Shown: positions 11,977 to 45,464 of the stretch, in pieces
Layout: each line of letters starts with the position of its first letter
How positions within the stretch are numbered: position 1 is the stretch's first letter
Virus record (IMG/VR): IMGVR_UViG_3300042347_000757
Location: 1-45,926 of that record
Reading direction: 5' to 3' (one strand)
Source: a virus
Lineage: Duplodnaviria; Caudoviricetes
Length of the DNA stretch: 45,926 nt
Notes under the pieces: generated by a model
Databases searched by the model: none
What the model was told of the DNA's origin: nothing
What the model saw: only the letters and a program-made list of their open reading frames with translations
Position numbers and translations under genes: made by a program

Positions 11977-12888
11977 ATGTCTAGAGCAAATACATATAGA
12001 GTGGATCCTCTTTATGTAAAGATGACTACCCCGAGAGATATGGGTGGATCATCTTTGCCTTCAGTTCAACAAATGTTTGGCAATTTGTCTCTTACGAGTC
12101 AATTTAAAGTCAATATGTTTTTGGGTGCAGCAACTGATGCCAAAGGTGGAGATCAAGATTTGGTATCATATTTGAAAGATTGTGGAATAACTAATGAGCA
12201 ATCAAAAACATTTACTTATGATTTTATGTGTGCGGAAGCAGTTCTTCCTGGAGCAACTTTTGACGTTGGGGAAGAAAGTGGAAGTCGTCAGGGCATAATT
12301 GAAAGATTTCCAAATCGTAGAATATATTCTGATTTTAATTTAACTTTTTATGTGGATAATGAATATAATATCATTCGTTTGTTTGAAGAATGGATGAATT
12401 TTATCAATCCAATTAACAGAAGTTCTGGACCACAAACTGCACAGGATAGTGGTCAAGTTGGATTTGAAGATCGTTTTAATTATTTTAGATTTAAATATCC
12501 AAATAAATATAAAAAAATAATTTCAATCACTAAATTTGAAAGAGACTTTTTGTTAAATCCAAATAATCCATATAGTCCTACAAATAATCAAAATCTTTTA
12601 ACTTATCAATTTATTGATGCATTTCCAACTAATATTACTGCTCTTCCATTGTCGTATGAGGGAAGTACAATAACTAAAACTACAATTAATTTTAGTTATA
12701 CTAGATATACTACAATAAAACATGCTGGAGTTGAAATAAGTCCAAATACACCAAGACCAAAAGATCCAGCAAATCCAGATCAACCCAATTCCACAACTAC
12801 TTCTAAACAATATTATGGACCTGCTTTTGGTAATAATGAGGAGGCAAACAGACAGGCAGCAATACTTAGAGGAGAAAACGTCCAATAA
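11977..12888 (+). CDS. Tail tube initiator, gp54/gp19-like baseplate protein
   Basis: CAEAVLPG, R.Y.DFNLTFYVD, FEEWMNFI, YQFIDAFP.NI, T.NFSY tube-fold motifs; divergent from gp4. Confidence 0.75.
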   Translation: MSRANTYRVDPLYVKMTTPRDMGGSSLPSVQQMFGNLSLTSQFKVNMFLGAATDAKGGDQDLVSYLKDCGITNEQSKTFTYDFMCAEAVLPGATFDVGEESGSRQGIIERFPNRRIYSDFNLTFYVDNEYNIIRLFEEWMNFINPINRSSGPQTAQDSGQVGFEDRFNYFRFKYPNKYKKIISITKFERDFLLNPNNPYSPTNNQNLLTYQFIDAFPTNITALPLSYEGSTITKTTINFSYTRYTTIKHAGVEISPNTPRPKDPANPDQPNSTTTSKQYYGPAFGNNEEANRQAAILRGENVQ

Positions 12889-12891
12889 ATA
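12885..12891 (+). promoter_or_regulatory. Late promoter (ATAAATA) upstream of gp26
   Basis: ATAAATA 27 nt before the gp26 ATG. Confidence 0.55.
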
Positions 12892-12918: not shown

Positions 12919-13644
12919 ATGCCTTTACCAAAAATTGCTACACCAACATATGAGTTGGAATTGCCATCAACTGGAAAAACAATCAAATATCGTCCATTTT
13001 TAGTCAAAGAAGAAAAGATTTTAATTCTTGCACTGGAAAGTGAAGATGTTAAACAAATCACTAGTGCAATCAAAAATACTTTAAAGGATTGTATTCTCAC
13101 AAGAGGAATTAAAGTAGAAGAACTTCCTACTTTTGATATTGAATATATCTTTTTGAATGTTCGTGCAAAGTCAGTTGGAGAATCAATTGAATTAATTGTG
13201 ACTTGTAGTGATGATGGAGAAACAGAAGTTCCAGTCAAAGTTTATATTGATGAAATTGAAGTTCAAAAAGATCCAAATCACACACAAGAAATTAAATTGG
13301 ATGCCAATTTAATTCTTAAAATGAAGTATCCATCTTTGAATGAATTTATTAAGAATAATTTTGATTTTAGTAGCAATGAAATTTCTTCTATTGATAAGTC
13401 ATTTGATGTAATTTCTTCTTGTATTGATGTGGTTTATAATAATGAAGACGTTTGGTCAGCATCAGATTGCACTAAAAAAGAATTGACCGATTGGATTGAG
13501 ACATTGACATCAAATCAATTTAAAATGATTGAAGAATTTTTCAACACAATGCCAAAACTTGCACATACTTTTAAAGTAATGAATCCAAATACAAAAGTAG
13601 AAAGCGAGGTGACACTGGAGGGGTTAACAAGTTTTTTCGGTTAA
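12919..13644 (+). CDS. gp26: Baseplate hub assembly protein gp26
   Basis: MPLPKIATPTYELELPSTG..IKYRPFLVKEEKIL, FDIEYIFLNVRAKSVGE, FF.TMPKL, LEGLTSFF. Confidence 0.92.
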   Translation: MPLPKIATPTYELELPSTGKTIKYRPFLVKEEKILILALESEDVKQITSAIKNTLKDCILTRGIKVEELPTFDIEYIFLNVRAKSVGESIELIVTCSDDGETEVPVKVYIDEIEVQKDPNHTQEIKLDANLILKMKYPSLNEFIKNNFDFSSNEISSIDKSFDVISSCIDVVYNNEDVWSASDCTKKELTDWIETLTSNQFKMIEEFFNTMPKLAHTFKVMNPNTKVESEVTLEGLTSFFG

Positions 13645-13646
13645 TT

Positions 13647-13823
13647 ATGGCTCATATGGATCTTGAGTCATATTTTAGAATTAATTTTTCACTAATACAG
13701 TTCCATAAATATTCTTTGACCGAGATTGAAAATCTTATGCCCTGGGAACGGGACGTTTATTTGGCACTTTTACAGCAGCACATTGAAGAAGAAAATCTAA
13801 AGGCACAACAACAGAATGCTTAA
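13647..13823 (+). CDS. gp51: Baseplate hub assembly catalyst gp51, 58 aa (not in ORF track; possibly made as a gp26 frameshift fusion)
   Basis: MAHMDLESYFRINFSLIQFHKYSLTEIENLMPWERDVYLALL; the HKYSLTEIE..MPWER..Y motif. Confidence 0.88.
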   Translation: MAHMDLESYFRINFSLIQFHKYSLTEIENLMPWERDVYLALLQQHIEEENLKAQQQNA

Positions 13824-15669
13824 AAATTCTCCGGGATTGTCATCATATAGAGGATATGGAACTCCATCTTTTGGGTCAATTCCTAGTGGGACTTTCTATC
13901 GTGGGAAGAGACCATCTGATTATTCCGCAAGAATGTTAAAGGAAAAGGGAGATCCTTTAGCAGAATTTAGTGGAATAAATCCAAAAAAAATAGTAGGTTC
14001 CCAGAAAGGAAGTAAAGAATCAGCACTGAATTTTATTTCGGGTGGATCTCCTATTGGGTCATCTGTGCTTTCTGGTGCAAAGAATAATATTGTTGGATTT
14101 GATAGAGCAAAGATTTCACCAAAAAAGAATAATTTGGGATCTTTGATTGGCACTTTAACTACTAATATTTTTAATAATACAAATTCAGTTTCAAATATTT
14201 TTGGAGATAAAAAAGAAAAATCAGAAAAAGGATTTAAACCATTTGGTGGATTTTTTGATAAAGTAAAAGAAGCAATTGGATTTATTAGTTTCTTTGGTTC
14301 AAAAAAGAATTTAGATAAAATTAAAGAAAATATAGAAAATTTAAAAACTACATTTACAGAAACATTTGATGTAGCAAAGGCATTAAGAAAAGCAATACTT
14401 AAAATTATAGAACAACTATCAGGGTTTTCTGGTGGTAGAGGTGGTGGAGGAATAATTGGTGCTATAATGTCAGCACTTGGTGGATTGGTTGGTGGATTGG
14501 TTGGTGGATTAATTCCTGGAATGGGAGGAAAACGACCACCAAATGTTGCTGGTCCTGCAATGAAACAGGAAGGAAATTTATTATCAAAATTACCAAAAGG
14601 TGGTGGAATAGGTAAATTGCTTTTAGGTGGTGCTGCTGCTGTTGGTGCAGGTTCTGTCGTAAGTGGTCTTTCTCAACCTGGCGGTGAAGAGGTTCAACCT
14701 GGAGATACTGCACCAGAAGTTCCTGGAAATCTTTTAGATAAATTTAATTCCATTTTAGATAGATTTGATAAAGCTCTTGATGGTTTAAGAGGAGGAAAGG
14801 GCAAAAAAGGTTCGGATTCTGGTACAAAACCTTCTGGTTCTGGCGGCGGTGGAGGTAGTCCTACTCCTACTCCTCTTTCTCCTTCTGGTGCTCCTACTGG
14901 GGTAACGATAAAAGACGATGCACAGGCATTGAAAGAATTGGGACTTACTCAAGAACAGTATAATGCATTAAAACAGGGTGTGGCAGACGTTGAGGGGGCA
15001 AGATATAATCAAATGGGAGGTGCAGGTACAAGATTTGCTGGAAGATATCAAATGGGGTCTAATGAGATTGCAGATTCCGCAAAAGTAATGGGGATTCCTG
15101 TGCCATCGCAACAGGAATATTTAAATAATCCAGAATTGCAGGAAAAAATTTATATGGGAAGGACAGTATATATGCATAGGAGGTTACAATCACTATCTCC
15201 AAAATATAATACTATGTCCCCTAGAGAGAGGGCAGTGGCTCTTGGTATGGGGCAACTTGGAGAAGGAAACGTTTCTTCCTATATTAATACAGGAACTCTC
15301 CCTAGAGATAGTGCGGGCGCTCCAATAACAAAATGGGGAACTGCAGTAGGAAAAAGATTTGATGAAGCATCATCTATCCCCTCTAAACCTCAACCAGGAC
15401 AACAAGCACCATCAGCACCAGTATTACCATCACCACAACAGTTAAGAAGAGCACCAGCGGCAAAAGCGTCTGGAGCAGAAGCACCACAAGTGAGTTTAGT
15501 TAATGTTGGTAGTGGAACACCACAAGCATCACCATCACGACCATCAAGCACAACTACACCACCATCACCAACTGGTGGAAATGGACCAACTGCTCCATTT
15601 TTGCCTTCATACAATCCAGATAATTTCTTAACATTATATTCAAGAATGGTTTATAATATTGTCGGATAA
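13816..15669 (+). CDS. Tail/tape-measure-like virion protein with lysozyme-like domain
   Basis: Helical and Gly-rich N-half; ADVE...AGRYQM...LNNPELQE lysozyme-like segment; Pro-rich linker; follows gp26/gp51. Confidence 0.65.
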   Translation: MLKNSPGLSSYRGYGTPSFGSIPSGTFYRGKRPSDYSARMLKEKGDPLAEFSGINPKKIVGSQKGSKESALNFISGGSPIGSSVLSGAKNNIVGFDRAKISPKKNNLGSLIGTLTTNIFNNTNSVSNIFGDKKEKSEKGFKPFGGFFDKVKEAIGFISFFGSKKNLDKIKENIENLKTTFTETFDVAKALRKAILKIIEQLSGFSGGRGGGGIIGAIMSALGGLVGGLVGGLIPGMGGKRPPNVAGPAMKQEGNLLSKLPKGGGIGKLLLGGAAAVGAGSVVSGLSQPGGEEVQPGDTAPEVPGNLLDKFNSILDRFDKALDGLRGGKGKKGSDSGTKPSGSGGGGGSPTPTPLSPSGAPTGVTIKDDAQALKELGLTQEQYNALKQGVADVEGARYNQMGGAGTRFAGRYQMGSNEIADSAKVMGIPVPSQQEYLNNPELQEKIYMGRTVYMHRRLQSLSPKYNTMSPRERAVALGMGQLGEGNVSSYINTGTLPRDSAGAPITKWGTAVGKRFDEASSIPSKPQPGQQAPSAPVLPSPQQLRRAPAAKASGAEAPQVSLVNVGSGTPQASPSRPSSTTTPPSPTGGNGPTAPFLPSYNPDNFLTLYSRMVYNIVG

Positions 15670-17807
15670 TGGAAACTAAACTTTTTTCTCCCCTACTATC
15701 ATCTGCAAATAACATTGTAAAAATGAAGCGTTCTTTGCCGAAAAGAGCAAGGGATTATAATGATTTTATTAATTGGTTGGATACAAGCAATAAAGATATT
15801 AAAAAAATAAAATTACCAAAAAAGAAGAAAGTAGAAGATCTTCAATTTTTTGTTGGATCTGCTCTTGGTGGAGGAGGTGGCGGTGGTGGAGGAATATTAG
15901 GATCACTTCTTGCTGCACTTGGAATTAGAAAAGGAGCAAATTTTTTAAAAGGTAAACTTGGACTTCCCAAAGGAAAGTTCAAAGGAAGTTATGAAGATAT
16001 TATCAAAAAGCTTAACAAAAAAAGCAATCTAACAAAAGGCGAAAATTTTGCTTTAAGAGATTATAAACGACTTGTTGGTAAGGGTGGAATAAGTAATAAT
16101 TCTGCTGCTTTTCAGGCATTGTTGAGAAATTCAAATATGAATGAGTATGAGTATCTTACAGGGCACGGAAAGGGAGTAAGAGGTGGTGGATTTTCATCAG
16201 AAACCGCAGCACAATATAGACAAGCAGGAAGAAGTGGAGGTGGTGGATTTAAAGGAGCACCAAGAGGAAGACTTGGGGGAATTGCTGGACCATTGAATAT
16301 TGCTTTTGCTGGTCTTGATTTTATGGGAAGAAAAGGCGAAGGACAATCAAACCTCCAAGCAGGGGTTGGATCGGGAGGTGGTCTTGCTGGTGGTCTTGCC
16401 GGTGCTTGGGCTGGTGGGAAAGCAGGAGCAGCAGTAGGCGCAGGTATAGGCGCTTTATTTGGTGGTGTTGGTGCAGCTCCTGGTGCAGTAATTGGGGGAA
16501 TTATTGGTTCTCTTGCTGGTGGATTTGGTGGAGGACAACTTGGTGGAAATTTAGCAGATAAATTTACTGGTGCTGATAAAATAGACGAAAGATTAAAAGC
16601 ACAAGAAACAAAACAACGAGAAGCAGCATCTTCAAGTGACGTTACATTTGCAAGTATTACTGATAAATTTGATAAAGTTGTAAGTAAGTTTGAAAAATTA
16701 AAATTGGGAATGACTGGAGTTCAAAATAAAAATGATTCCAGTGAAGAAATAGAAGACTCCGATTCTATAGAACCCACAGATCCAATTAATACTGGAAATA
16801 ATCCAGAATCAACTGGATTACAACTTGAAGATGTTGAAGCATCTGGAGGGGAAGTTCCTGGAGCTCCAGATTCAAGTTTTAGATCGGCACGTCGTCCGAG
16901 GCATAATGGTAATGATTATTTTAAGAATGCTGGAACACCAATTAGTTTAATTCAAGAAGGAACAGTGACTGTTGCAGATATGAATTATAATCCTAGTGGA
17001 TGGGGAGCACTCATTGAAGTTAGACATAAAGATGGTTCTTTAAGTAGATACGCTCATATGAGTAGAATATCTGTTGCTCCTGGTTCTAAAATTTCCCCAG
17101 GACAAGTTATTGGATATACTGGTGGTGCTGCAGGTGCTCCTGGATCTGGAAATTCCGAAGGACCTCATTTACACTTTGAATATCTTCCTGCTGGTTCTGG
17201 TCAGGTTGACCCAACAGAAGCAGCCAAAAGAATTTTTAGATTTGGTGGTAATGTAAAAGTAAAAGCAAAAGCAAAAGCAGGAGCAAATGAACAATCCTCA
17301 GCAGCACCAATAGCACCAGAAAAAGGTGTCGATGTTTTTAATAAATTGTCAAAAGCAAAACCAGGGAGCGGAGAAACAATTAAAGTTCCTGGTGTTGGAA
17401 GTGTTGTAATGGGAAGAAATCTTTTTCAACAAGCAGAGAAAAAATACTTTACGGAAAAAGGAGAACAAATTACTGATCCCGAAAAGATAAAAGGATTTAA
17501 GAATCAATTGGATGCATTCCTCAAAAATTCTAGAGATTATGAATTATCACAAGCAAAAGTAAGAGCACAAACAGGCGATCAAATACCAGCACAAATTTTG
17601 ACACCACCACCAACTGCAGCACAACAAGCTGCAATATTTTTAATGGGAGATCAAAGTCAACAAGTTGCATCACAACCACAAGTTGTTCCATTTCCAATTC
17701 CAACTGGGAATGGAGGTGGTGGCGTTACAGTTATAATGCCATCCGAAGGTCAGATATTAAATAGTCTATGGACTACAATGCTTCTCACTAATCTTTCTTC
17801 AGCATAA
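15669..17807 (+). CDS. Tail/tape-measure-like protein with glycine zipper and M23 peptidase domain
   Basis: HNGND (HxxxD), RYAHM, GQVIGYTG, GPHLHFEY (HxH), VDP; long GxxxG stretch. Confidence 0.85.
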   Translation: METKLFSPLLSSANNIVKMKRSLPKRARDYNDFINWLDTSNKDIKKIKLPKKKKVEDLQFFVGSALGGGGGGGGGILGSLLAALGIRKGANFLKGKLGLPKGKFKGSYEDIIKKLNKKSNLTKGENFALRDYKRLVGKGGISNNSAAFQALLRNSNMNEYEYLTGHGKGVRGGGFSSETAAQYRQAGRSGGGGFKGAPRGRLGGIAGPLNIAFAGLDFMGRKGEGQSNLQAGVGSGGGLAGGLAGAWAGGKAGAAVGAGIGALFGGVGAAPGAVIGGIIGSLAGGFGGGQLGGNLADKFTGADKIDERLKAQETKQREAASSSDVTFASITDKFDKVVSKFEKLKLGMTGVQNKNDSSEEIEDSDSIEPTDPINTGNNPESTGLQLEDVEASGGEVPGAPDSSFRSARRPRHNGNDYFKNAGTPISLIQEGTVTVADMNYNPSGWGALIEVRHKDGSLSRYAHMSRISVAPGSKISPGQVIGYTGGAAGAPGSGNSEGPHLHFEYLPAGSGQVDPTEAAKRIFRFGGNVKVKAKAKAGANEQSSAAPIAPEKGVDVFNKLSKAKPGSGETIKVPGVGSVVMGRNLFQQAEKKYFTEKGEQITDPEKIKGFKNQLDAFLKNSRDYELSQAKVRAQTGDQIPAQILTPPPTAAQQAAIFLMGDQSQQVASQPQVVPFPIPTGNGGGGVTVIMPSEGQILNSLWTTMLLTNLSSA

Positions 17808-23061: not shown

Positions 23062-24756
23062 ATGATTTCAACTAATTTTATTGCCGAGCAACAAGAGGAA
23101 TTAGATTATAAGACTGCAGAAGTACAAATGATCAAAGATCAATTAACACTGATGGATGTTAGAATTGATCGTTATGATACTATCATTCGTAATATAGATA
23201 AACAAATTATTCCACTTGTTGATGAAATTAATGTTTCTATTGCAGCAGTAAAAGATGCTTATGATAATCGGATTGCTGCTGGTTGTAGAAGTGATTTATA
23301 TTGGGAATTAACTTCTACAAAATCTTATTTTGGATTGTCTCCAATAGTAACCACAGTATATACTTGTAAAAAGAATCCAAATGTGAGAACAGATTATGGA
23401 TATTATGGTGCAAAGTATTATAGAAGACCACAAAATCAAGATTATGGATCAAATATTGTTCGTGAATTTTTGGGCGCAATAGATTCTGGTAGTAATGTTT
23501 TAGCAGTATTTGGAATTATTGGAACACAAAATATATCAGTTGGAGATGATATTTTAGATAATATTGATAATCCTGTTGTATTTTCTTCTGTTAATTTGCC
23601 CAAAATTGTTGGTTTTGGGACTACTAGTATTGCGGGAATTACTACCGATTTTGGTGGATATGTAAGTTCCGGTTCAACTATTATTGCGAATGTTGGTGTT
23701 GGAACTACAATTGGAATTAATACTGGAGATTCAATATCATTATCTGGAATTTTAACTACAGGAACAAAAGTAGTTGGGTTTGGTACTACTACAATTACGG
23801 TTAATAATGTTTGGGATTCAACTACTGGAACATTTATAACTACCAATGCAACTGCAAATAGTTTAATCATAAGTATTCCAGCTGTTGGAACTGGAACTGG
23901 AACTTTTAAAGTTGGACCTTTGGTTACTTATCCAACTTTAATTTTAAGTGCAGTAGCATTATCAACTGCAACAAATACTAATTTTACAAATATAAGAACT
24001 ACACAAATTGATTCAACTATATTTGATTATTCCAATAATCCCATAGATCCAGTGACTGTTGGTGTTTTGAATTCTAATACTATAGGTTTTGGTCATAAAT
24101 TAGTAAGAGTCAATGATGGAAGTCCAATTGGCCCATTTCAATGGCAAGAAGTTATGACTTCAGAATTTGCAAATAAAACTGATTCTCAATTAAATGAATC
24201 TGAAAGATATTTAAGAACTACTTATCCTGAACCTGCTTGTGGTGCAAGTTATGCCAGATACTATCCAGGAAATACTGAATGGCCTGTTTTATATACTAAT
24301 ACCTATAGTGGTGGTGGATCTTTTATTAGTTCAACTAGTACATATGCAAATGAAGGAACTACAATTACCATTGGTTTTGGTATAACATCTCTTTATAGTA
24401 TAGGATATACAACTACATCTTCAATAAATCCAGGTGCTGGTGTTTGTAATCCACTTGATGCTGCAATTATTGCTGCGGAAGCAAATAGAGATGCAATTAT
24501 TGCAAGAAATTTATCAAAAATTGATTCTTTAATTGCTGCATCTAATCCCTTAAGAGAAATGAGAAATACAATAGAATCTCGTGCCTTTGCAATGCTACAA
24601 GGAAGAGTTTATGGAGATGTTGAAGTAAATAAACTCAAACAAAATATTTCAATATTAAAATCAACAGATTATACACCATTTGAACCTCCAACATATTATT
24701 TTGATTCAACTACTGGAAAATTAGTGTCTTCTGTGGTTGGGACTTCGACCACTTAA
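23062..24756 (+). CDS. Virion structural protein (coiled-coil ends, Thr/Gly-rich core)
   Basis: 564-aa ORF, repeated VGFGTT / VGVGT, ATAAATA at 23017-23023 upstream. Confidence 0.7.
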   Translation: MISTNFIAEQQEELDYKTAEVQMIKDQLTLMDVRIDRYDTIIRNIDKQIIPLVDEINVSIAAVKDAYDNRIAAGCRSDLYWELTSTKSYFGLSPIVTTVYTCKKNPNVRTDYGYYGAKYYRRPQNQDYGSNIVREFLGAIDSGSNVLAVFGIIGTQNISVGDDILDNIDNPVVFSSVNLPKIVGFGTTSIAGITTDFGGYVSSGSTIIANVGVGTTIGINTGDSISLSGILTTGTKVVGFGTTTITVNNVWDSTTGTFITTNATANSLIISIPAVGTGTGTFKVGPLVTYPTLILSAVALSTATNTNFTNIRTTQIDSTIFDYSNNPIDPVTVGVLNSNTIGFGHKLVRVNDGSPIGPFQWQEVMTSEFANKTDSQLNESERYLRTTYPEPACGASYARYYPGNTEWPVLYTNTYSGGGSFISSTSTYANEGTTITIGFGITSLYSIGYTTTSSINPGAGVCNPLDAAIIAAEANRDAIIARNLSKIDSLIAASNPLREMRNTIESRAFAMLQGRVYGDVEVNKLKQNISILKSTDYTPFEPPTYYFDSTTGKLVSSVVGTSTT

Positions 24757-35700: not shown

Positions 35701-38700
35701 ATGAATGGAGGAAAAGATGTAAGGTTTGGACACGATAAACGTCAAGTTTCTATTGTTCCAAATTCGGAACAAAATCTTTATAATATTGCAAATGGTGAAA
35801 TATTAACAGATGAGTTTGGAACTCCTGTAATTACGGAAGTTGATACATTTTATCTTCCTGATGCAACAACAAAAAGATCTTCCTCTATTGTATTTGATGG
35901 AACAAAGAGTCCATATCCAAAACAAAGTTATCAAACAATTGGCATATTTTCTGCTTCTTATGCAGATTATGATGTATATCTAACTCAACCATTTACAGTA
36001 TTGCAATCTGGTGGTGGAAATGTTGGCGTTTCTAGCACTGTTCTGATATCATCTGGATATGTGATATTGGGAAATTATCCATACCAAGAAGTTGGTACAG
36101 TGGCGGATCAAGTATCGGAAAAAAATAAATTATATTTTGACACTTCAATTGGAATTTCAACAATACTTGGTGTTTCTGTTGGGGATTTTGTATCTGGACC
36201 AGACATTCCAGACGGAACTTATGTTGCACAAGTTTCATATAATAATAGATTAACATTATCTAATAATACAACAAATACTTCATCTCAAATTAGAGATGTT
36301 TTAATTCAAAGAAGAAATATTACTAAAGCAAAGTCAGATCCAGTTTGGAAAATTGAAGAACAATTTAAAGAAACAAGTGAAGTTAGTACAACATTACTTG
36401 GTGTCAACAGAGCAGAAACTCAACTTGCATTATTTGCAAACGTATCTAGTTATGGTTTAGATCCAGATGATTTTGAAACTTATTCATTTAATGGCGGAAC
36501 AAGTTTTGGAAGTTGGGAAACAAGAAAAAATGCATTGTTTGGAAATAGATATTCAGCAACAACTACGGAAGAAACTCAAGAATCAGCAATTAAATTAACT
36601 GCATTTCCTACACCATATTCATATCCATATGGACCAAATTTTGCTAAATTAGGTCTTTACAACGATGATCTTTTCAATCGTTATCGTTTATTCATACAAC
36701 TTGGAAATGATTTATATGAATATTTCAGTATTGGTGCTGGATCATATTATCCAAGTGAGTGGAAGGAAAAGTTTTTATCTCCTGGATTTGCTTATGTGTT
36801 TGGCGGCGATGTTGTTTATGCTGCTGGAATTGATAGATCATTTGCTCAAATTGATATTTGGACTGATACTTGGAGAGATATTAAAGATGGAATTCTGATA
36901 GATCCAACCAATGGATCTGCCTTTAATTTTGCCATAGTTAGCACTATTTTAGGTGGTTCTTATGATTCAACATCAACTCGTCCTGGATATGCTGATAATT
37001 TCAGAAGATATTCATATCTTCAATCAAGAAGAGTATTTAGATATCAACCTGGAAGAATTAGTGGATTTACTTTTGGTTTAAGGTCTTCTGTAGAACCAGT
37101 AACTGGAATTACTTTAGAATGGGGAATTGCAAATAATAGTGATCAATATATTTTCCAAATTGATGCAGGACAATTTTTCATCATTCGCAGAAGTACAATT
37201 CCATTAGAATCTAGCGTTTTAATAAGAAATGGACTGACAATTTTTGACCAAACAAGAATTGAAAGTGGAGATCCATTTGATAGTGAAACATATTGGACAA
37301 TTAAAATTCCAAAAGACAAATTCAATGGCGACCCATTAAATTCTAATGGACCTTCTGGATATCTGCTCCAACCACAAAATGTTACAATGTATAAAATTGA
37401 ATTTGGTTGGTATGGTGCGATTGGTGCAAGATTCTATGCATATATCCCAACAGATAATGGTGATGCACGATGGGTAGTAATTCACACACTTGTAATTGAA
37501 AACTCTCTGGAGGCTCCTTGCTTAAGAGATTCTTATTTTAGATTCAAATACTCTTTGAATGTTGCTAACACTGGAGATGTGAGAACACCACAATACATTT
37601 ATAAGTATGGTGCTTCTTATTATATTGATGGTGGAGACGAAGGAACATCCCAAATATATTCAACATCATCCAAACAAAAAACTATTAGAACAACTGGTAG
37701 CAAATCTTTAATTGGAATTCGTCCAAAGGAATATCTATTAAATCGTGAAGGAGTTGAAATTCAAAATAAAAAAATTATTATTCCAGAAACATTAAATGTT
37801 TCCACTGACTCATTAACAGAAGTGAAAGTTGTAACTTGCAAGGCTTGTCCTGGATTTGGTCACGTTTATACTCCAGGAATAGCAACAACCGAAAGTGGTA
37901 GATATATTGACGCAGAGTTTGATACAACAAGTAGTATTGTCTCACTAAATGATAGTTATTTTACTGAAAATGATATTGGAGCAAAGATAATTGCGCCTTC
38001 AATTTACAATGCATATATTACAAATGTGACAAATCCAATTGGTATTGGAAATTCTTATGAAAAAGCAGTAATAAAAAGATTTGCTGGTATATCTGATTTT
38101 TCATTAGAAACAAAACCAATAGCAGGAGAATTAGTTTTAGATAGAGTTTTGGGAATCACTACCACAATTGGTATCGGGACTACGTATCCACACCAAATTC
38201 GTTTAAGTAATTATAATGCCATTGCTGCTTCTGAATTTGCATTTAGTGGGTCTAAAATTGAAATTCAATTTGTAAATCCAAATAATGGAGACGATTATGC
38301 ACATTTTGCAGATTTCTTGATTGGAATTACTGACAAAAAACCAGATGTATCTCTTCCAGATACTTTGAATGGATTTATTCTTCCTGGAGCAGGCACAACA
38401 AGTGTTCTTTCAAATTCTCAAATTTTATATGGAGAACATACACATTCTTATACTGCTGCTGATGAAGATGGAGTTGAAGTTGCAGAAGGTTGGGCACCAC
38501 AACAACCACCATTAAGAATGGGAATTGATTATAGAATTCCAAATTTATCTGCACCAGCAGGTGGAGTATGTTCCAAAGTTACTGTAGATGTTTTAAATCC
38601 ATTAGAAATACAAAATGTCAACGAAAAAAATTATCTTCCAAGTCTTACAGGAACACCACCAGAAGATCCTCAGGGAAGACGTTGGATTGAAATTGCTGGA

Positions 38701-39390
38701 ACATTTCCAAATATTGATTATGCTGGAGGACAAATTGCAGTTAAAAATACCACTACTAACGTTATAACTATTACAAATTCTACATTTGTTGGAGTCACAA
38801 GTAGTTACACTAATACTCAAGGAAACATATTTTCTTATATTCAAATTTCACAAACTTTAGGATCTGTTGGATCTAATTTTACTGTTCTCATTCGTCCAGT
38901 ATCTATTACTGGAACTACAATTAGTAAACAAAAACTTTATAACTACAATCCTTGGCCTTTATATTTGGTTGCAAAATTAAAAGATAATGCAGCGATCAAT
39001 AATATTAGTGTCGAAGAAACTATTGGTGATTTCCAAAGAACCATTAGTCCAAAATGGTATGTTTCTAGTAATTGTACAGTTACTACTGCTGATGGAAATG
39101 CAGATATAACTGGTGCAGCACCAACTAATTTTCAGGAAATTGATAGATCTTCTTCTGCATTGATTGATATTCAAAATGATCAAACATTAAGACCATATAC
39201 AGAAAGAGATACATTATATGTTGGAGCAAATTCAACAGAATCTATTAATATGAAAAAAATATTTGGTCCTGATAGATCTATCATAACACCTGACAACAAT
39301 AATGTTGAGGCAACTTTTATTCTCGCCAAAAAGATTGATTCTGGTTCCACTGGAACTGTTGAAGCAAGTATAAACTTCAAAGAACAATAA
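35701..39390 (+). CDS. Large virion structural protein, 1229 aa, paralog of the preceding gene
   Basis: SRRVFRYQPGR, MYKIEFGWYGAIGA, KYGASYYIDGGD. Confidence 0.75.
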   Translation: MNGGKDVRFGHDKRQVSIVPNSEQNLYNIANGEILTDEFGTPVITEVDTFYLPDATTKRSSSIVFDGTKSPYPKQSYQTIGIFSASYADYDVYLTQPFTVLQSGGGNVGVSSTVLISSGYVILGNYPYQEVGTVADQVSEKNKLYFDTSIGISTILGVSVGDFVSGPDIPDGTYVAQVSYNNRLTLSNNTTNTSSQIRDVLIQRRNITKAKSDPVWKIEEQFKETSEVSTTLLGVNRAETQLALFANVSSYGLDPDDFETYSFNGGTSFGSWETRKNALFGNRYSATTTEETQESAIKLTAFPTPYSYPYGPNFAKLGLYNDDLFNRYRLFIQLGNDLYEYFSIGAGSYYPSEWKEKFLSPGFAYVFGGDVVYAAGIDRSFAQIDIWTDTWRDIKDGILIDPTNGSAFNFAIVSTILGGSYDSTSTRPGYADNFRRYSYLQSRRVFRYQPGRISGFTFGLRSSVEPVTGITLEWGIANNSDQYIFQIDAGQFFIIRRSTIPLESSVLIRNGLTIFDQTRIESGDPFDSETYWTIKIPKDKFNGDPLNSNGPSGYLLQPQNVTMYKIEFGWYGAIGARFYAYIPTDNGDARWVVIHTLVIENSLEAPCLRDSYFRFKYSLNVANTGDVRTPQYIYKYGASYYIDGGDEGTSQIYSTSSKQKTIRTTGSKSLIGIRPKEYLLNREGVEIQNKKIIIPETLNVSTDSLTEVKVVTCKACPGFGHVYTPGIATTESGRYIDAEFDTTSSIVSLNDSYFTENDIGAKIIAPSIYNAYITNVTNPIGIGNSYEKAVIKRFAGISDFSLETKPIAGELVLDRVLGITTTIGIGTTYPHQIRLSNYNAIAASEFAFSGSKIEIQFVNPNNGDDYAHFADFLIGITDKKPDVSLPDTLNGFILPGAGTTSVLSNSQILYGEHTHSYTAADEDGVEVAEGWAPQQPPLRMGIDYRIPNLSAPAGGVCSKVTVDVLNPLEIQNVNEKNYLPSLTGTPPEDPQGRRWIEIAGTFPNIDYAGGQIAVKNTTTNVITITNSTFVGVTSSYTNTQGNIFSYIQISQTLGSVGSNFTVLIRPVSITGTTISKQKLYNYNPWPLYLVAKLKDNAAINNISVEETIGDFQRTISPKWYVSSNCTVTTADGNADITGAAPTNFQEIDRSSSALIDIQNDQTLRPYTERDTLYVGANSTESINMKKIFGPDRSIITPDNNNVEATFILAKKIDSGSTGTVEASINFKEQ

Positions 39391-42401: not shown

Positions 42402-43328
42402 ATGACAAAACAAAATCAAGGTTTTAGAAGAGATTTAAATTTCCAAGAAAATACTAATGATACACAATCTTTAAGTAATCTTGGTGGTGCTGGAATTGCA
42501 AACGATTTACGTATTTTACAAAATAATTTAAGAAATACTTCAACACTATCATTCAATACTGTTGTTGGTGCAGCAATATCAAGTGGACATTTTTATTTTG
42601 GTCCAACTGAATTTGTATTCACAAATGATGATGTTGTTGGGGTAAAGACTGATATCACAGTTGGTGTTGGTGTTACTTTATATAAAGATAGTACTTATTA
42701 TATTTGTAATTCAAATAGCGAAAACCAATTTAAATTATCAACAACTCCATCTAATGTTGGCGTAAATACAATTACTGTTTCTTCCGTATCATCAAGTTTT
42801 GATTTTGTTCGTAAAGATCCAGTACATAAAGAAAATATTTTAAATCTAGTAAAACCAATCATTCAAGATACTGAAAATTTTAATTATCTTGGCGGATCAT
42901 CAATCAATAGTGTTTTTGATGGTATAGCAGCAGCAAACGAAACTGCCAGATTTTTTATTACAAAAAAATATAAAGGAAATGAAAATACAGTATCAAATAA
43001 TGATATTAATGTTGAAGGATCTATTAAAATAAATGATCCACAAAACTTCAATGCTGGATCTTCGCAACTATCTGACACAAGATCTCCTGGTATTTTTATT
43101 GGTGACACTCGTGCATTTTCAAGTGACAATAATCCTTGGGCACAAGTTGGGACTGCTTTATCAACTTTAAGTAGTTCAGTTTCAATTGGAGAACTTTATT
43201 TTGCAAATGATATAACAATCACTGGAATTGGCGCAGAGACTGCAACAAATGTTGCAGTCACAACTTATACTCACAAATTACCAGTTGTAATTAATGGCGA
43301 AACTTATTATATTTTATTACGCACATAG
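42402..43328 (+). CDS. Putative virion structural protein
   Basis: 308-aa ORF; YYICNS...FKLSTT module; N-terminus resembles both neighbours. Confidence 0.7.
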   Translation: MTKQNQGFRRDLNFQENTNDTQSLSNLGGAGIANDLRILQNNLRNTSTLSFNTVVGAAISSGHFYFGPTEFVFTNDDVVGVKTDITVGVGVTLYKDSTYYICNSNSENQFKLSTTPSNVGVNTITVSSVSSSFDFVRKDPVHKENILNLVKPIIQDTENFNYLGGSSINSVFDGIAAANETARFFITKKYKGNENTVSNNDINVEGSIKINDPQNFNAGSSQLSDTRSPGIFIGDTRAFSSDNNPWAQVGTALSTLSSSVSIGELYFANDITITGIGAETATNVAVTTYTHKLPVVINGETYYILLRT

Positions 43329-45464
43329 AATTTTATAAGTTCCTATAGGAGTTTGAATTGATATTCTACTTGTAGATGTATTTGAAGCAGAGTAAGTTGT
43401 AATATTTGAAGACGAAACGACTGCTTTTAATGCATCAAATATTACGTTTCCAGATTCAATTCGGAGATTTGGTGATGCAGATATTGTATCCAATCCCTCC
43501 AAAGTTGCAGTAAATGGAGGAGAAGTATCTGTTGGTGGACAGCAAAGTTGTCTATCGTCAGATTCACCAGTGACTGTAAAGTTTGCTCCTGCAACCAAAG
43601 CACGAGTTGTGGGAGTATTGATAACTACACTTCCTGCTGGTGGAGCACCATTAACAGTTGTTCCGCTAGCAAAATAGAATCCCTGAACAGACCATCCATT
43701 AGAAACTCCTGTGCTATCTACAACGGGAATTGTAGTAGATCCTATTGGAGTATCGGCAGAAACAGTTAGACATTTTGTAATTGTTCTATTGCAGAATGAA
43801 TTCAAACTTTCATTAACAAGACCACGAGATTGATAAACATAATAAGTCGATGCTCCTAATGTTTGAGATGGATCAATTGTAAAGGTTGATGTGCTACTAG
43901 TAGTTGTGATTCCAGTATATGCTTGTGTAGTTGCACCAATCAAAATCATTCCAGATTTAAGATCAGTAGTAGATCCACTAGATAAAGTAAAAGTTGTTGC
44001 AGATGCAGAACCTTCTATTTTTTTTACAAATCCACGATGATCAATAAATGTTAAACTTGTAGAACCAGAAGCAGTTGCTAACGTATCAATTATAATACCA
44101 GTATTGATTAAAATTTGATTAATTCTTGTATTTTCTGGAATGCCTGTGCCAACAATATAATTACCTACTTCTAAATTTGTTGTATTTGATAGATTTATAA
44201 CATTTGTGTTAATTGTTGTTGTTCCAGTAATCGTATTTTTTGTAATATTTGCTAAAGTTGTTTTTGGTTGATATTTGATATCAACTTTTTTTAAAGATTT
44301 AACTTTTACATAATTATTTGATAATATTCCACCAATAGTTCCACCACCAAATCTTATAGAATTGTCTATAAAAATTGAAAACTCTCCTTTTGCAGCATCA
44401 CTAAAATCATAATCCAAAGAATATAAATTAGTATATCGTAAATCAATAATACCACCAGTTGGAGCAGTATAATCAAAATTTATATTTCTTTGTAGCCCTA
44501 TTGCATCAACACTACTTGGAATATAATATCTTACCCTAATTCTATATCTTTGTTGTGCATTTAAGATATATGTAGAATAAGATATTGCAGTATCTTGCCC
44601 AATAGTTTTAAAGAAAGTTTTATTTTCATTGGTAAAAGATGCAGTTACTGCATTTCCTGATGGAGGAGTAAGACCAACAATACCTGTATTTCTATCAATA
44701 GATGCAACTACAGTACCAGTATTGATTCCAACACCAGAAATACTTTGTCCAACACCAACATATTTTGCATCATTTGCTGTTGTTAAAATGATTTGATTTG
44801 AATTTAAGGTTCCAGATGCAGATAATGAAGTAGTTAACCCAATTCTATTAACTTCTGTGTATGTTCCAACTCCACTGACATAACCTTGTGTTTCAAAATC
44901 AAAAGTAAAACAAGCACTACTATTAATATAAAAATTATGCACTCCACTCTGTGTTGGAATAAAATATCCTTCCCATTGAACGCCACCATTTACATCAACA
45001 CTTTCTGGAGTAATTTTTTCACTATATGAAAAGTTTCCATTTTCCCAAAAATTATCAGTTTTGAATGGTATTCCGGAAAAAATTCCCACAGTATTTTCAA
45101 ATACTTGATCGGAATTAAAATAACTTGCTGATAATCCGTTTCCGCCTCTAAATCTTGGATCTCCAGAAAATGTTTTGAATCTATCTAAACGATTTTGATA
45201 TGTTATTCTTGGAGTAAATGCTATATTGATTCCAGAATTATTTGTAAATTGAACTGCACTTCCTGTAATTTGCGAATAACCAACATTATCTAAACCAGCA
45301 GAATATATTCCCCTAATACAATCCAAATCTTCGCTAATGAAAGTGCTTTGATTATCATCAACTAACGTATCTAAAAGATTATTTAATGCTTCGGTTGAAT
45401 TTGATAAATCACTAAAATTTTTATCTCTTCTCAACCCAACTCTTTTGAATATCTTTCTAGTCAT
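43317..45464 (-). CDS. PA14-domain virion protein, 715 aa
   Basis: GNGLSASYF...GGVQWEGYFIPTQSGVHNFYINS...LNAQQRYRIRVRY (PA14-like); CTAAATA on the minus strand at 45481-45487. Confidence 0.75.
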   Translation of the reverse strand: MTRKIFKRVGLRRDKNFSDLSNSTEALNNLLDTLVDDNQSTFISEDLDCIRGIYSAGLDNVGYSQITGSAVQFTNNSGINIAFTPRITYQNRLDRFKTFSGDPRFRGGNGLSASYFNSDQVFENTVGIFSGIPFKTDNFWENGNFSYSEKITPESVDVNGGVQWEGYFIPTQSGVHNFYINSSACFTFDFETQGYVSGVGTYTEVNRIGLTTSLSASGTLNSNQIILTTANDAKYVGVGQSISGVGINTGTVVASIDRNTGIVGLTPPSGNAVTASFTNENKTFFKTIGQDTAISYSTYILNAQQRYRIRVRYYIPSSVDAIGLQRNINFDYTAPTGGIIDLRYTNLYSLDYDFSDAAKGEFSIFIDNSIRFGGGTIGGILSNNYVKVKSLKKVDIKYQPKTTLANITKNTITGTTTINTNVINLSNTTNLEVGNYIVGTGIPENTRINQILINTGIIIDTLATASGSTSLTFIDHRGFVKKIEGSASATTFTLSSGSTTDLKSGMILIGATTQAYTGITTTSSTSTFTIDPSQTLGASTYYVYQSRGLVNESLNSFCNRTITKCLTVSADTPIGSTTIPVVDSTGVSNGWSVQGFYFASGTTVNGAPPAGSVVINTPTTRALVAGANFTVTGESDDRQLCCPPTDTSPPFTATLEGLDTISASPNLRIESGNVIFDALKAVVSSSNITTYSASNTSTSRISIQTPIGTYKILCA

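Follow-up and report, generated by a model that had tools for sequence, protein, structure and literature searches.

Sequence evidence for a -1 frameshift signal at the junction of gp26 and gp51 in an uncultured T4-like phage

Where gp26 meets the short gp51 open reading frame in an uncultured T4-like phage, a run of T residues lies just before the gp26 stop codon, raising the question of whether the two frames are separate genes, or one tail-assembly-chaperone gene that is read in two ways. The window analysed here is the entire virus record, 45,926 bases in length. In this region PHROG profiles matched gp32, gp53, gp48, gp2, gp4 and gp5, a tube gene like gp54, gp26 together with the short gp51, the two Gly-rich ORFs and a tail protein of 440 aa; the T4 gene numbers are labels that we placed on the PHROG matches. 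The closest cultured match to gp26 was found in Synechococcus phage S-SCSM2R (68.6%), and DNA of the window was present in lake and river metagenomes; the source virus is likely cyanophage-like and of freshwater. Contigs from two lake-metagenome runs, X6 and X7, spanned the junction without indels, and run X6 contained 0.91 of the sampled words of the window; RNA runs X19 and X20 gave no coverage of the junction. Elsewhere in the window, ORFs of 715, 564 and 308 aa, at 43317-45464 (minus strand), 23062-24756 (plus strand) and 42402-43328 (plus strand), respectively, had no PHROG match at E 1e-8. The features used below are as follows.

11977..12888, plus strand: gp54-like gene of the tail-tube family (phrog_45, E 4e-32; PF23849, E 5e-19), adjoining gp26 upstream
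12919..13644, plus strand: gp26, predicted short form (TAC-N, G-like), 241 aa (PF12322, E 4e-72; phrog_150; predicted chaperone fold in residues 1-95)
13617..13623, plus strand: internal Shine-Dalgarno-like GGAGGGG, -10.1 kcal/mol, with 10 nt between the end of the GGAGG core and the heptamer
13632..13638, plus strand: slippery heptamer T-TTT-TTC, coding Phe-Phe; tandem -1 slip predicted from phase and conservation
13638..13823, plus strand: -1 frame of 61 codons, putative C-terminal T domain (TAC-C) (phrog_634, E 1.5e-26; phrog_150 positions 241-280; PF28602)
13642..13644, plus strand: gp26 stop codon TAA, from the reading of the gp26 frame
13646..13672, plus strand: predicted 9-bp hairpin, beginning after a 7-nt spacer from the heptamer, with a 9-nt loop and the ATG at 13647 buried
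13816..17807, plus strand: pair of long ORFs rich in Gly (617 and 712 aa), in which lysin-like (374-515) and M23 peptidase (411-509) domains were matched

Just 5′ of gp26, AATAAATA (12884..12891, plus strand) was picked up by pattern match as a putative T4-late-promoter-like element; between 12800 and 14000, a terminator-like site was not found and promoters were not in excess.

In the gp26 frame, positions 13630-13644 read AGT TTT TTC GGT TAA, and in the -1 frame CGG TTA ATT ATG continues open into the gp51 ORF, which as annotated comprises 58 aa from its ATG (13647-13823). A slip of one base at the heptamer would join 240 residues of gp26 to 61 residues of the -1 frame, giving a predicted fusion of 301 residues. 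A sequence-only reading of this DNA had proposed the phase and coordinates of the heptamer, the open -1 frame and the 301-aa fusion, as well as the 7-nt spacer, the 9-bp stem (arms 13646-13654 and 13664-13672) and the position of the gp51 ATG within the hairpin, and all of these were borne out when we read the sequence again. Within the 28 plus-strand ORFs of the window there are 83 in-frame slippery heptamers, and the -1 frame remains open for at least 40 codons after two of them; of these two, T-TTT-TTC at 13632-13638 alone lies at the end of a gene, which sets it apart from a chance occurrence. An in-frame A-AAT-TTA at 38541, inside the ORF at 35701-39390, has 49 open codons in the -1 frame, probably by chance.

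Conservation was evaluated in a close set of 80 IMG/VR loci with 62-100% identity, one of which was truncated, and T-TTT-TTC was present in all 79 untruncated loci. Once three truncated loci, duplicates and a copy with the same sequence as the window had been removed, 69 unique junctions were left, window included, and since these form 51 clusters at 90% identity and one single cluster at 60%, counts made on them are not independent. At all 69 junctions the terminal Phe-Phe is encoded by TTT TTC, and the codon 5′ of it ends in T in every case while specifying five amino acids (AGT, TCT, GCT, AAT and GAT). In contrast, Phe-Phe pairs inside the same proteins are TTT TTC in only 4 of 68 cases, with Phe codons elsewhere being 76% TTT. 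Each of the 69 junctions has 61-67 open codons in the -1 frame. An ATG is kept at codon 6 of that frame in 59 of them, and is replaced by CTA, CTG, CTT or TTA in the other 10.

A scan with a distant representative yielded a further 80 loci, of which 3 were truncated, giving 59 unique junctions that fall into 28 clusters at 60% and are 33-49% identical to the window protein. The T-domain profile matched the -1 frame in 59/59 of these, and all 59 carry a heptamer, in the form TTTTTTC (35), TTTTTTT (23) or TTTTTTA (1). No ATG occurs among the first 12 codons of the -1 frame in 56 of the 59, and 37 of the 55 relatives checked have none of ATG, GTG or TTG. The control provided by internal Phe-Phe pairs is weaker here, because 26 of 72 are slippery. 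In both the close and the distant sets, the heptamer was kept, the second frame was always -1, and no stops intervened, which are the outcomes that the sequence-only reading had asked for in those of its checks that can be made in silico. The gp26 of four relatives (L396, L401, L412 and L417) extends 7-14 codons beyond the slip, so that for a short stretch both frames are open.

In 19 single-gene phages from culture, hand-picked from spread match lists, the T-like frame was always -1 (by translation), T-TTT-TTN was present in 14, and an ATG was absent from the first 12 codons in 10. Two variants of the heptamer were seen: T-TTT-TTG in RL38J1, which is also the form in P2 gene E, and T-TTT-TTA in XG4. 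The junctions of Vi01, YC, 3M, D533 and Cygsa01, which lack the canonical heptamer and have NNT-TTC only, genuinely depart from the canonical site, and the same was true of 20/20 loci resembling Vi01, with a TAATG overlap in 5 and TAATT without ATG in 15. At such non-canonical ends, gp26 reads ATT-TTC, GTT-TTC, CTT-TTC or GCT-TTC before the stop and the T-like frame is still -1, which points to slippage of a single tRNA, to coupling or to a start at ATT. Two further collections were set aside. A motif scan of genome contigs turned up 120 loci, of which 40 had gp26 relatives, and was left out as evidence because the scan presupposes the motif. Fused gp26-gp51 proteins in a metagenome protein database (35 matches) were nearly all clusters of one member, and in many of them the junction was truncated or garbled; they are most likely products of sequencing indels and were therefore not counted.

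T4-type phages serve as a natural control. T4 gp26 (208 aa) and gp51 (249 aa) have PF12322 in common with the window, and the last 48 residues of gp51 (202-249), a small domain that follows PF12322 (1-201), align with the -1 product of the window; T4 differs in that 26 and 51 are two genes, divergently transcribed, and have no slip site. A full-length fused gp51 was found in 12 of 13 T4-type loci, and the heptamer in none of 11 complete T4-type copies of gene 26, most of which keep Phe-Phe, as TTC TTT. Synonymous disruption of the T-run, which would count against a role for the run in frameshifting, was confined to T4-type phages, where the fusion gene is hard-coded. IME13 and RB43 agree with the T4-type pattern; RB43 (L132:1501-2794) is of the two-gene type, yet carries 51 and 26 in tandem on one strand, unlike T4. 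One T4-type gp51 (L130:2501-3246) is broken after 120 codons, probably by an assembly error. In a tree of 41 rows, which is unrooted and has long branches, 16 gp26/gp51 rows of two-gene phages are separated from 25 split-type rows by one branch (99/96), an arrangement that fits a single duplication in the T4 lineage.

The sequence-only reading overlooked an internal Shine-Dalgarno-like element in gp26, which is likely a 5′ stimulator of the slip. GGAGGGG was the strongest of nine such sites tested in the window, and sites of -6 kcal/mol or lower were found at 64/69 close and 32/59 distant junctions, compared to a background of about 5%. Codon choice in the close set is biased accordingly: the Glu codon at this position is GAG in 59/69 junctions, versus 24% elsewhere, and the codon before that Glu ends in G in 46/69, versus 26% of Leu codons.

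On the 3′ side, the 9-bp stem is the minimum free energy structure of the 50 nt following the slip (-10.2 kcal/mol, z -2.8, with 3 of 200 shuffles as good), and its z was only -1.26 when a window of 96 nt was folded. Mean z in the close set was -2.4, and values below -1.5 were obtained for 52/69 junctions, where each of five control windows gave 6-19 of 69. When 40 close sequences were compared, 79% of stem cells paired and 11 double changes were present, exceeding all 500 shuffles in a test that relatedness inflates; slid controls had fewer paired cells in every instance, and one of them equalled the real stem in double changes. RNAalifold returned no consensus structure for 40 close sequences, and z fell below -1.5 at 15/59 distant junctions, on par with control windows; because of these two results we regard the hairpin as a clade-level feature, which likely acts as a 3′ stimulator within the close clade alone. 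The hairpin that had been proposed is present in the window, but does not hold as a general feature of these junctions. A subclade of eight loci (L040, L044, L047, L052, L054, L057, L058 and L061) has a different predicted hairpin of 8-10 bp, placed some 16 nt inside the window that was folded, and its position further from the slip may possibly reflect stimulator turnover. It had also been argued from the lack of a Shine-Dalgarno before the gp51 ATG; the lack is true, but is uninformative, because gp26 and five neighbouring tail genes are without one too.

What the two domains might do was examined by profile and structure comparisons. PF12322 matched gp26 with an E-value of 3.7e-72 and 243 bits, against a cut-off of 24.5, and a predicted model of gp26 (pLDDT 86) was aligned with 48,161 PDB representative chains. 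Ranks 1 to 3 were 3FGX (Z 8.0), 2OB9 (Z 7.4) and 3KLU (Z 7.1), with the next match at 5.1; these Z scores are moderate, and the alignments cover 85-86 residues at an rmsd of 3.9-4.3 Å, all within residues 1-95 of 241. The accessible text of PMC9603447 names all three as tail assembly chaperones. 2OB9 is the one from HK97, and the predicted N-terminal domain of gp26 resembles the fold of HK97 gp13. It is unlikely that three members of one family would head the ranking of a predicted model by chance. A PDB sequence search with the gp26 profile found nothing significant.

The T domain, three helices in the predicted model, clustered with PF28602 Gp51_C by language-model features (score 0.97), and NCBIfam matched neither ORF, while Pfam left the T domain unmatched. 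Its next-nearest families in the ESM Atlas, which are leads only, were DUF6760 (0.91) and P2 GpE (0.90). DUF6760 is presumably a small protein of contractile injection systems, and may be the counterpart of the T domain there. Foldseek found annotated chaperones for the T domain at E about 2 only, a weak result; an hhalign comparison with the single sequences of P2 E and E′, which is a weak test, gave no match, and a P2 scan retrieved near-identical copies only. By the slip signal and the predicted fold of the short form, assignment of the gene to the TAC-N/TAC-NC family is supported. The earlier proposal that gp26/gp51 is equivalent to G/G-T is supported by the predicted fold, and by T4 gp51 being a fusion of G and T parts.

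The same proposal placed the pair ahead of tape-measure-like genes. The 617- and 712-aa Gly-rich ORFs, which are linked to their neighbours by stop-start codon overlaps, do match tape-measure profiles, but mainly via the M23 domain, with one weak match elsewhere (E 6e-4). They are candidate tape-measure genes, weakly supported, and could possibly be a split tape measure.

The programmed -1 frameshift signal at the end of gp26 is, as judged from sequence comparison, well supported and very probably real, and we hold with much the same confidence that gp26 and the short gp51 ORF are a single tail-assembly-chaperone gene, giving a short and a long form by -1 slippage. Most ribosomes would stop at 13642 and release the 241-aa short form, while a minority would slip back one base on U-UUU-UUC, both Phe tRNAs presumably re-pairing in the -1 frame, and produce the 301-aa long form. 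The Shine-Dalgarno 10 nt upstream would stimulate the slip, as would, in the close clade, the hairpin 7 nt downstream, which may also hide the ATG. If lambda is a guide, the domain with the chaperone fold would let the short form coat the tape-measure protein, and the small helical domain added in the long form would recruit a tube protein. T4-type phages obtain the same pair from two genes, 26 for the short form and 51 for the long one.

The ATG could, alternatively, be the start of a separate protein made by translational coupling, with ribosomes stopping at TAA and restarting two bases on, and the T-run reflecting no more than a required Phe-Phe. The ATG kept at 59/69 close junctions would be expected from this, as would the TAATG or TGATG overlaps of D486, Yut2, RL38J1, XG4, YC, D533 and Cygsa01, which make the -1 frame automatic, and the residues are indeed conserved too, since FF or FL, followed by 0-3 residues, closes the protein in 130 of 141 full-length distant representatives. 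However, protein constraint cannot fix TTT TTC together with a preceding T, as seen in 69/69 terminal but 4/68 internal pairs, and the frame and conserved N-terminal residues stay where the ATG is gone (56/59 distant and 10/69 close relatives). In the four relatives whose short form continues for several codons after the slip, T-like sequence in the -1 frame already starts at the slip, and T4 employs a covalent fusion. We therefore consider coupling as the source of two separate proteins to be very unlikely, although, with the ATG retained in 59/69 of the close clade, some free T protein might be made here by reinitiation. It is scarcely credible that the long form arises by transcriptional slippage, in which RNA polymerase would add a U on the T-run: the element does consist of a single base (T6 in the window and T7 in 23/59 distant relatives), but a run of only 6 T is short beside the 9 A or T on which bacterial slippage is described in the accessible text of PMC5009743, and strict codon phasing of the run and an SD-like element at ribosome distance are features expected of translation.

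A real frameshift might also serve a pair that acts only in assembly of the baseplate hub, or is a structural hub subunit, and does not chaperone the tape measure. PMC3004832, in its accessible text, counts gp26 and gp51 among the chaperones of hub assembly and cites genetics placing gp26 in the hub, and the word 'frameshift' is absent from that text. The match of the chaperone fold to residues 1-95 of 241 only, and the failure of hhalign to match single P2 E/E′ sequences, are also compatible with a hub function; the best three fold matches, on the other hand, are all tail assembly chaperones, and DUF6760 and P2 GpE, as leads only, point the same way for the T domain. We regard an exclusive hub role as unlikely, and the hub and chaperone views are in any case largely compatible, because the T4 tape measure gp29 is a hub component.

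The arrangement can be compared with known systems. In lambda, a -1 slip close to the tail chaperone gene's 3′ end yields a short and a long form, and the 2016 review that describes this calls the G-T frameshift conserved, 'except T4' (PMC5009743, accessible text). Lambda gpG/gpGT and P2 gpE/gpE+E′ are like the window in having the slip close to the chaperone gene's 3′ end, and the T-run of P2 is similar. Compared with lambda G and P2 E, gp26 is longer, at 241 aa, with about 145 extra residues (bearing CxxC motifs in relatives), and sequence homology between the window pair and P2 E/E′ was not detected. The cassette is like that of E. coli dnaX, where the Shine-Dalgarno is 10 nt to the 5′ side of the shift (PMC5009743, accessible text), in its internal Shine-Dalgarno at 10 nt, its heptamer and, in the close clade, its predicted 3′ stem-loop; it differs in having U-UUU-UUC in place of A-AAA-AAG, and in that the shift here lengthens the protein.

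The sequence-only reading knew of no description of the frameshift link between gp26 and gp51; one appears to exist. The abstract of a 2022 paper by Vladimirov et al. reportedly names T4 genes 26 and 51, and is said to report frameshifting as conserved in several T4-like groups. In their accessible texts, PMC12846349 cites Vladimirov et al. (2022) for poly-T -1 slippery sequences in the TAC-N genes of T4-like phages, and PMC10885494 cites the same work for T4-like phages with one short gene and one fused long gene. The principle thus appears to have been described already for T4-like phages, with the window adding a new example from an uncultured phage; no new principle is involved, because the link of T4 26/51 to lambda G/G-T has been in print since 2022. 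A broader proposal, which we put forward tentatively and think may well not hold, is that cyanophage-like relatives of T4 set the ratio of short to long form by an undescribed dnaX-style cassette of three parts (U-UUU-UUC, the Shine-Dalgarno 10 nt ahead of it, and a hairpin that covaries and also silences the retained ATG), and that the superfamily makes the pair in three ways: by canonical frameshifting, by the non-canonical slip or stop-start coupling of the Ackermannviridae type, and by gene duplication in T4.

These results bear on annotation. Some GenBank records label T4-type gp51 'tape measure protein assembly chaperone', and the T-domain frame is unannotated in Aeh1 (L082:3217-3390), Vi01 (L083:3310-3470) and 3M (L137, after 1399), and annotated from an internal Met in P-SSM7, S-T4 and Melnitz. 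In cyanophage-like genomes the short 'gp51' probably does not stand as a gene of its own, and its annotation would need to be corrected, while the cassette described here is a sharply defined and testable case of a bioinformatically supported frameshift.
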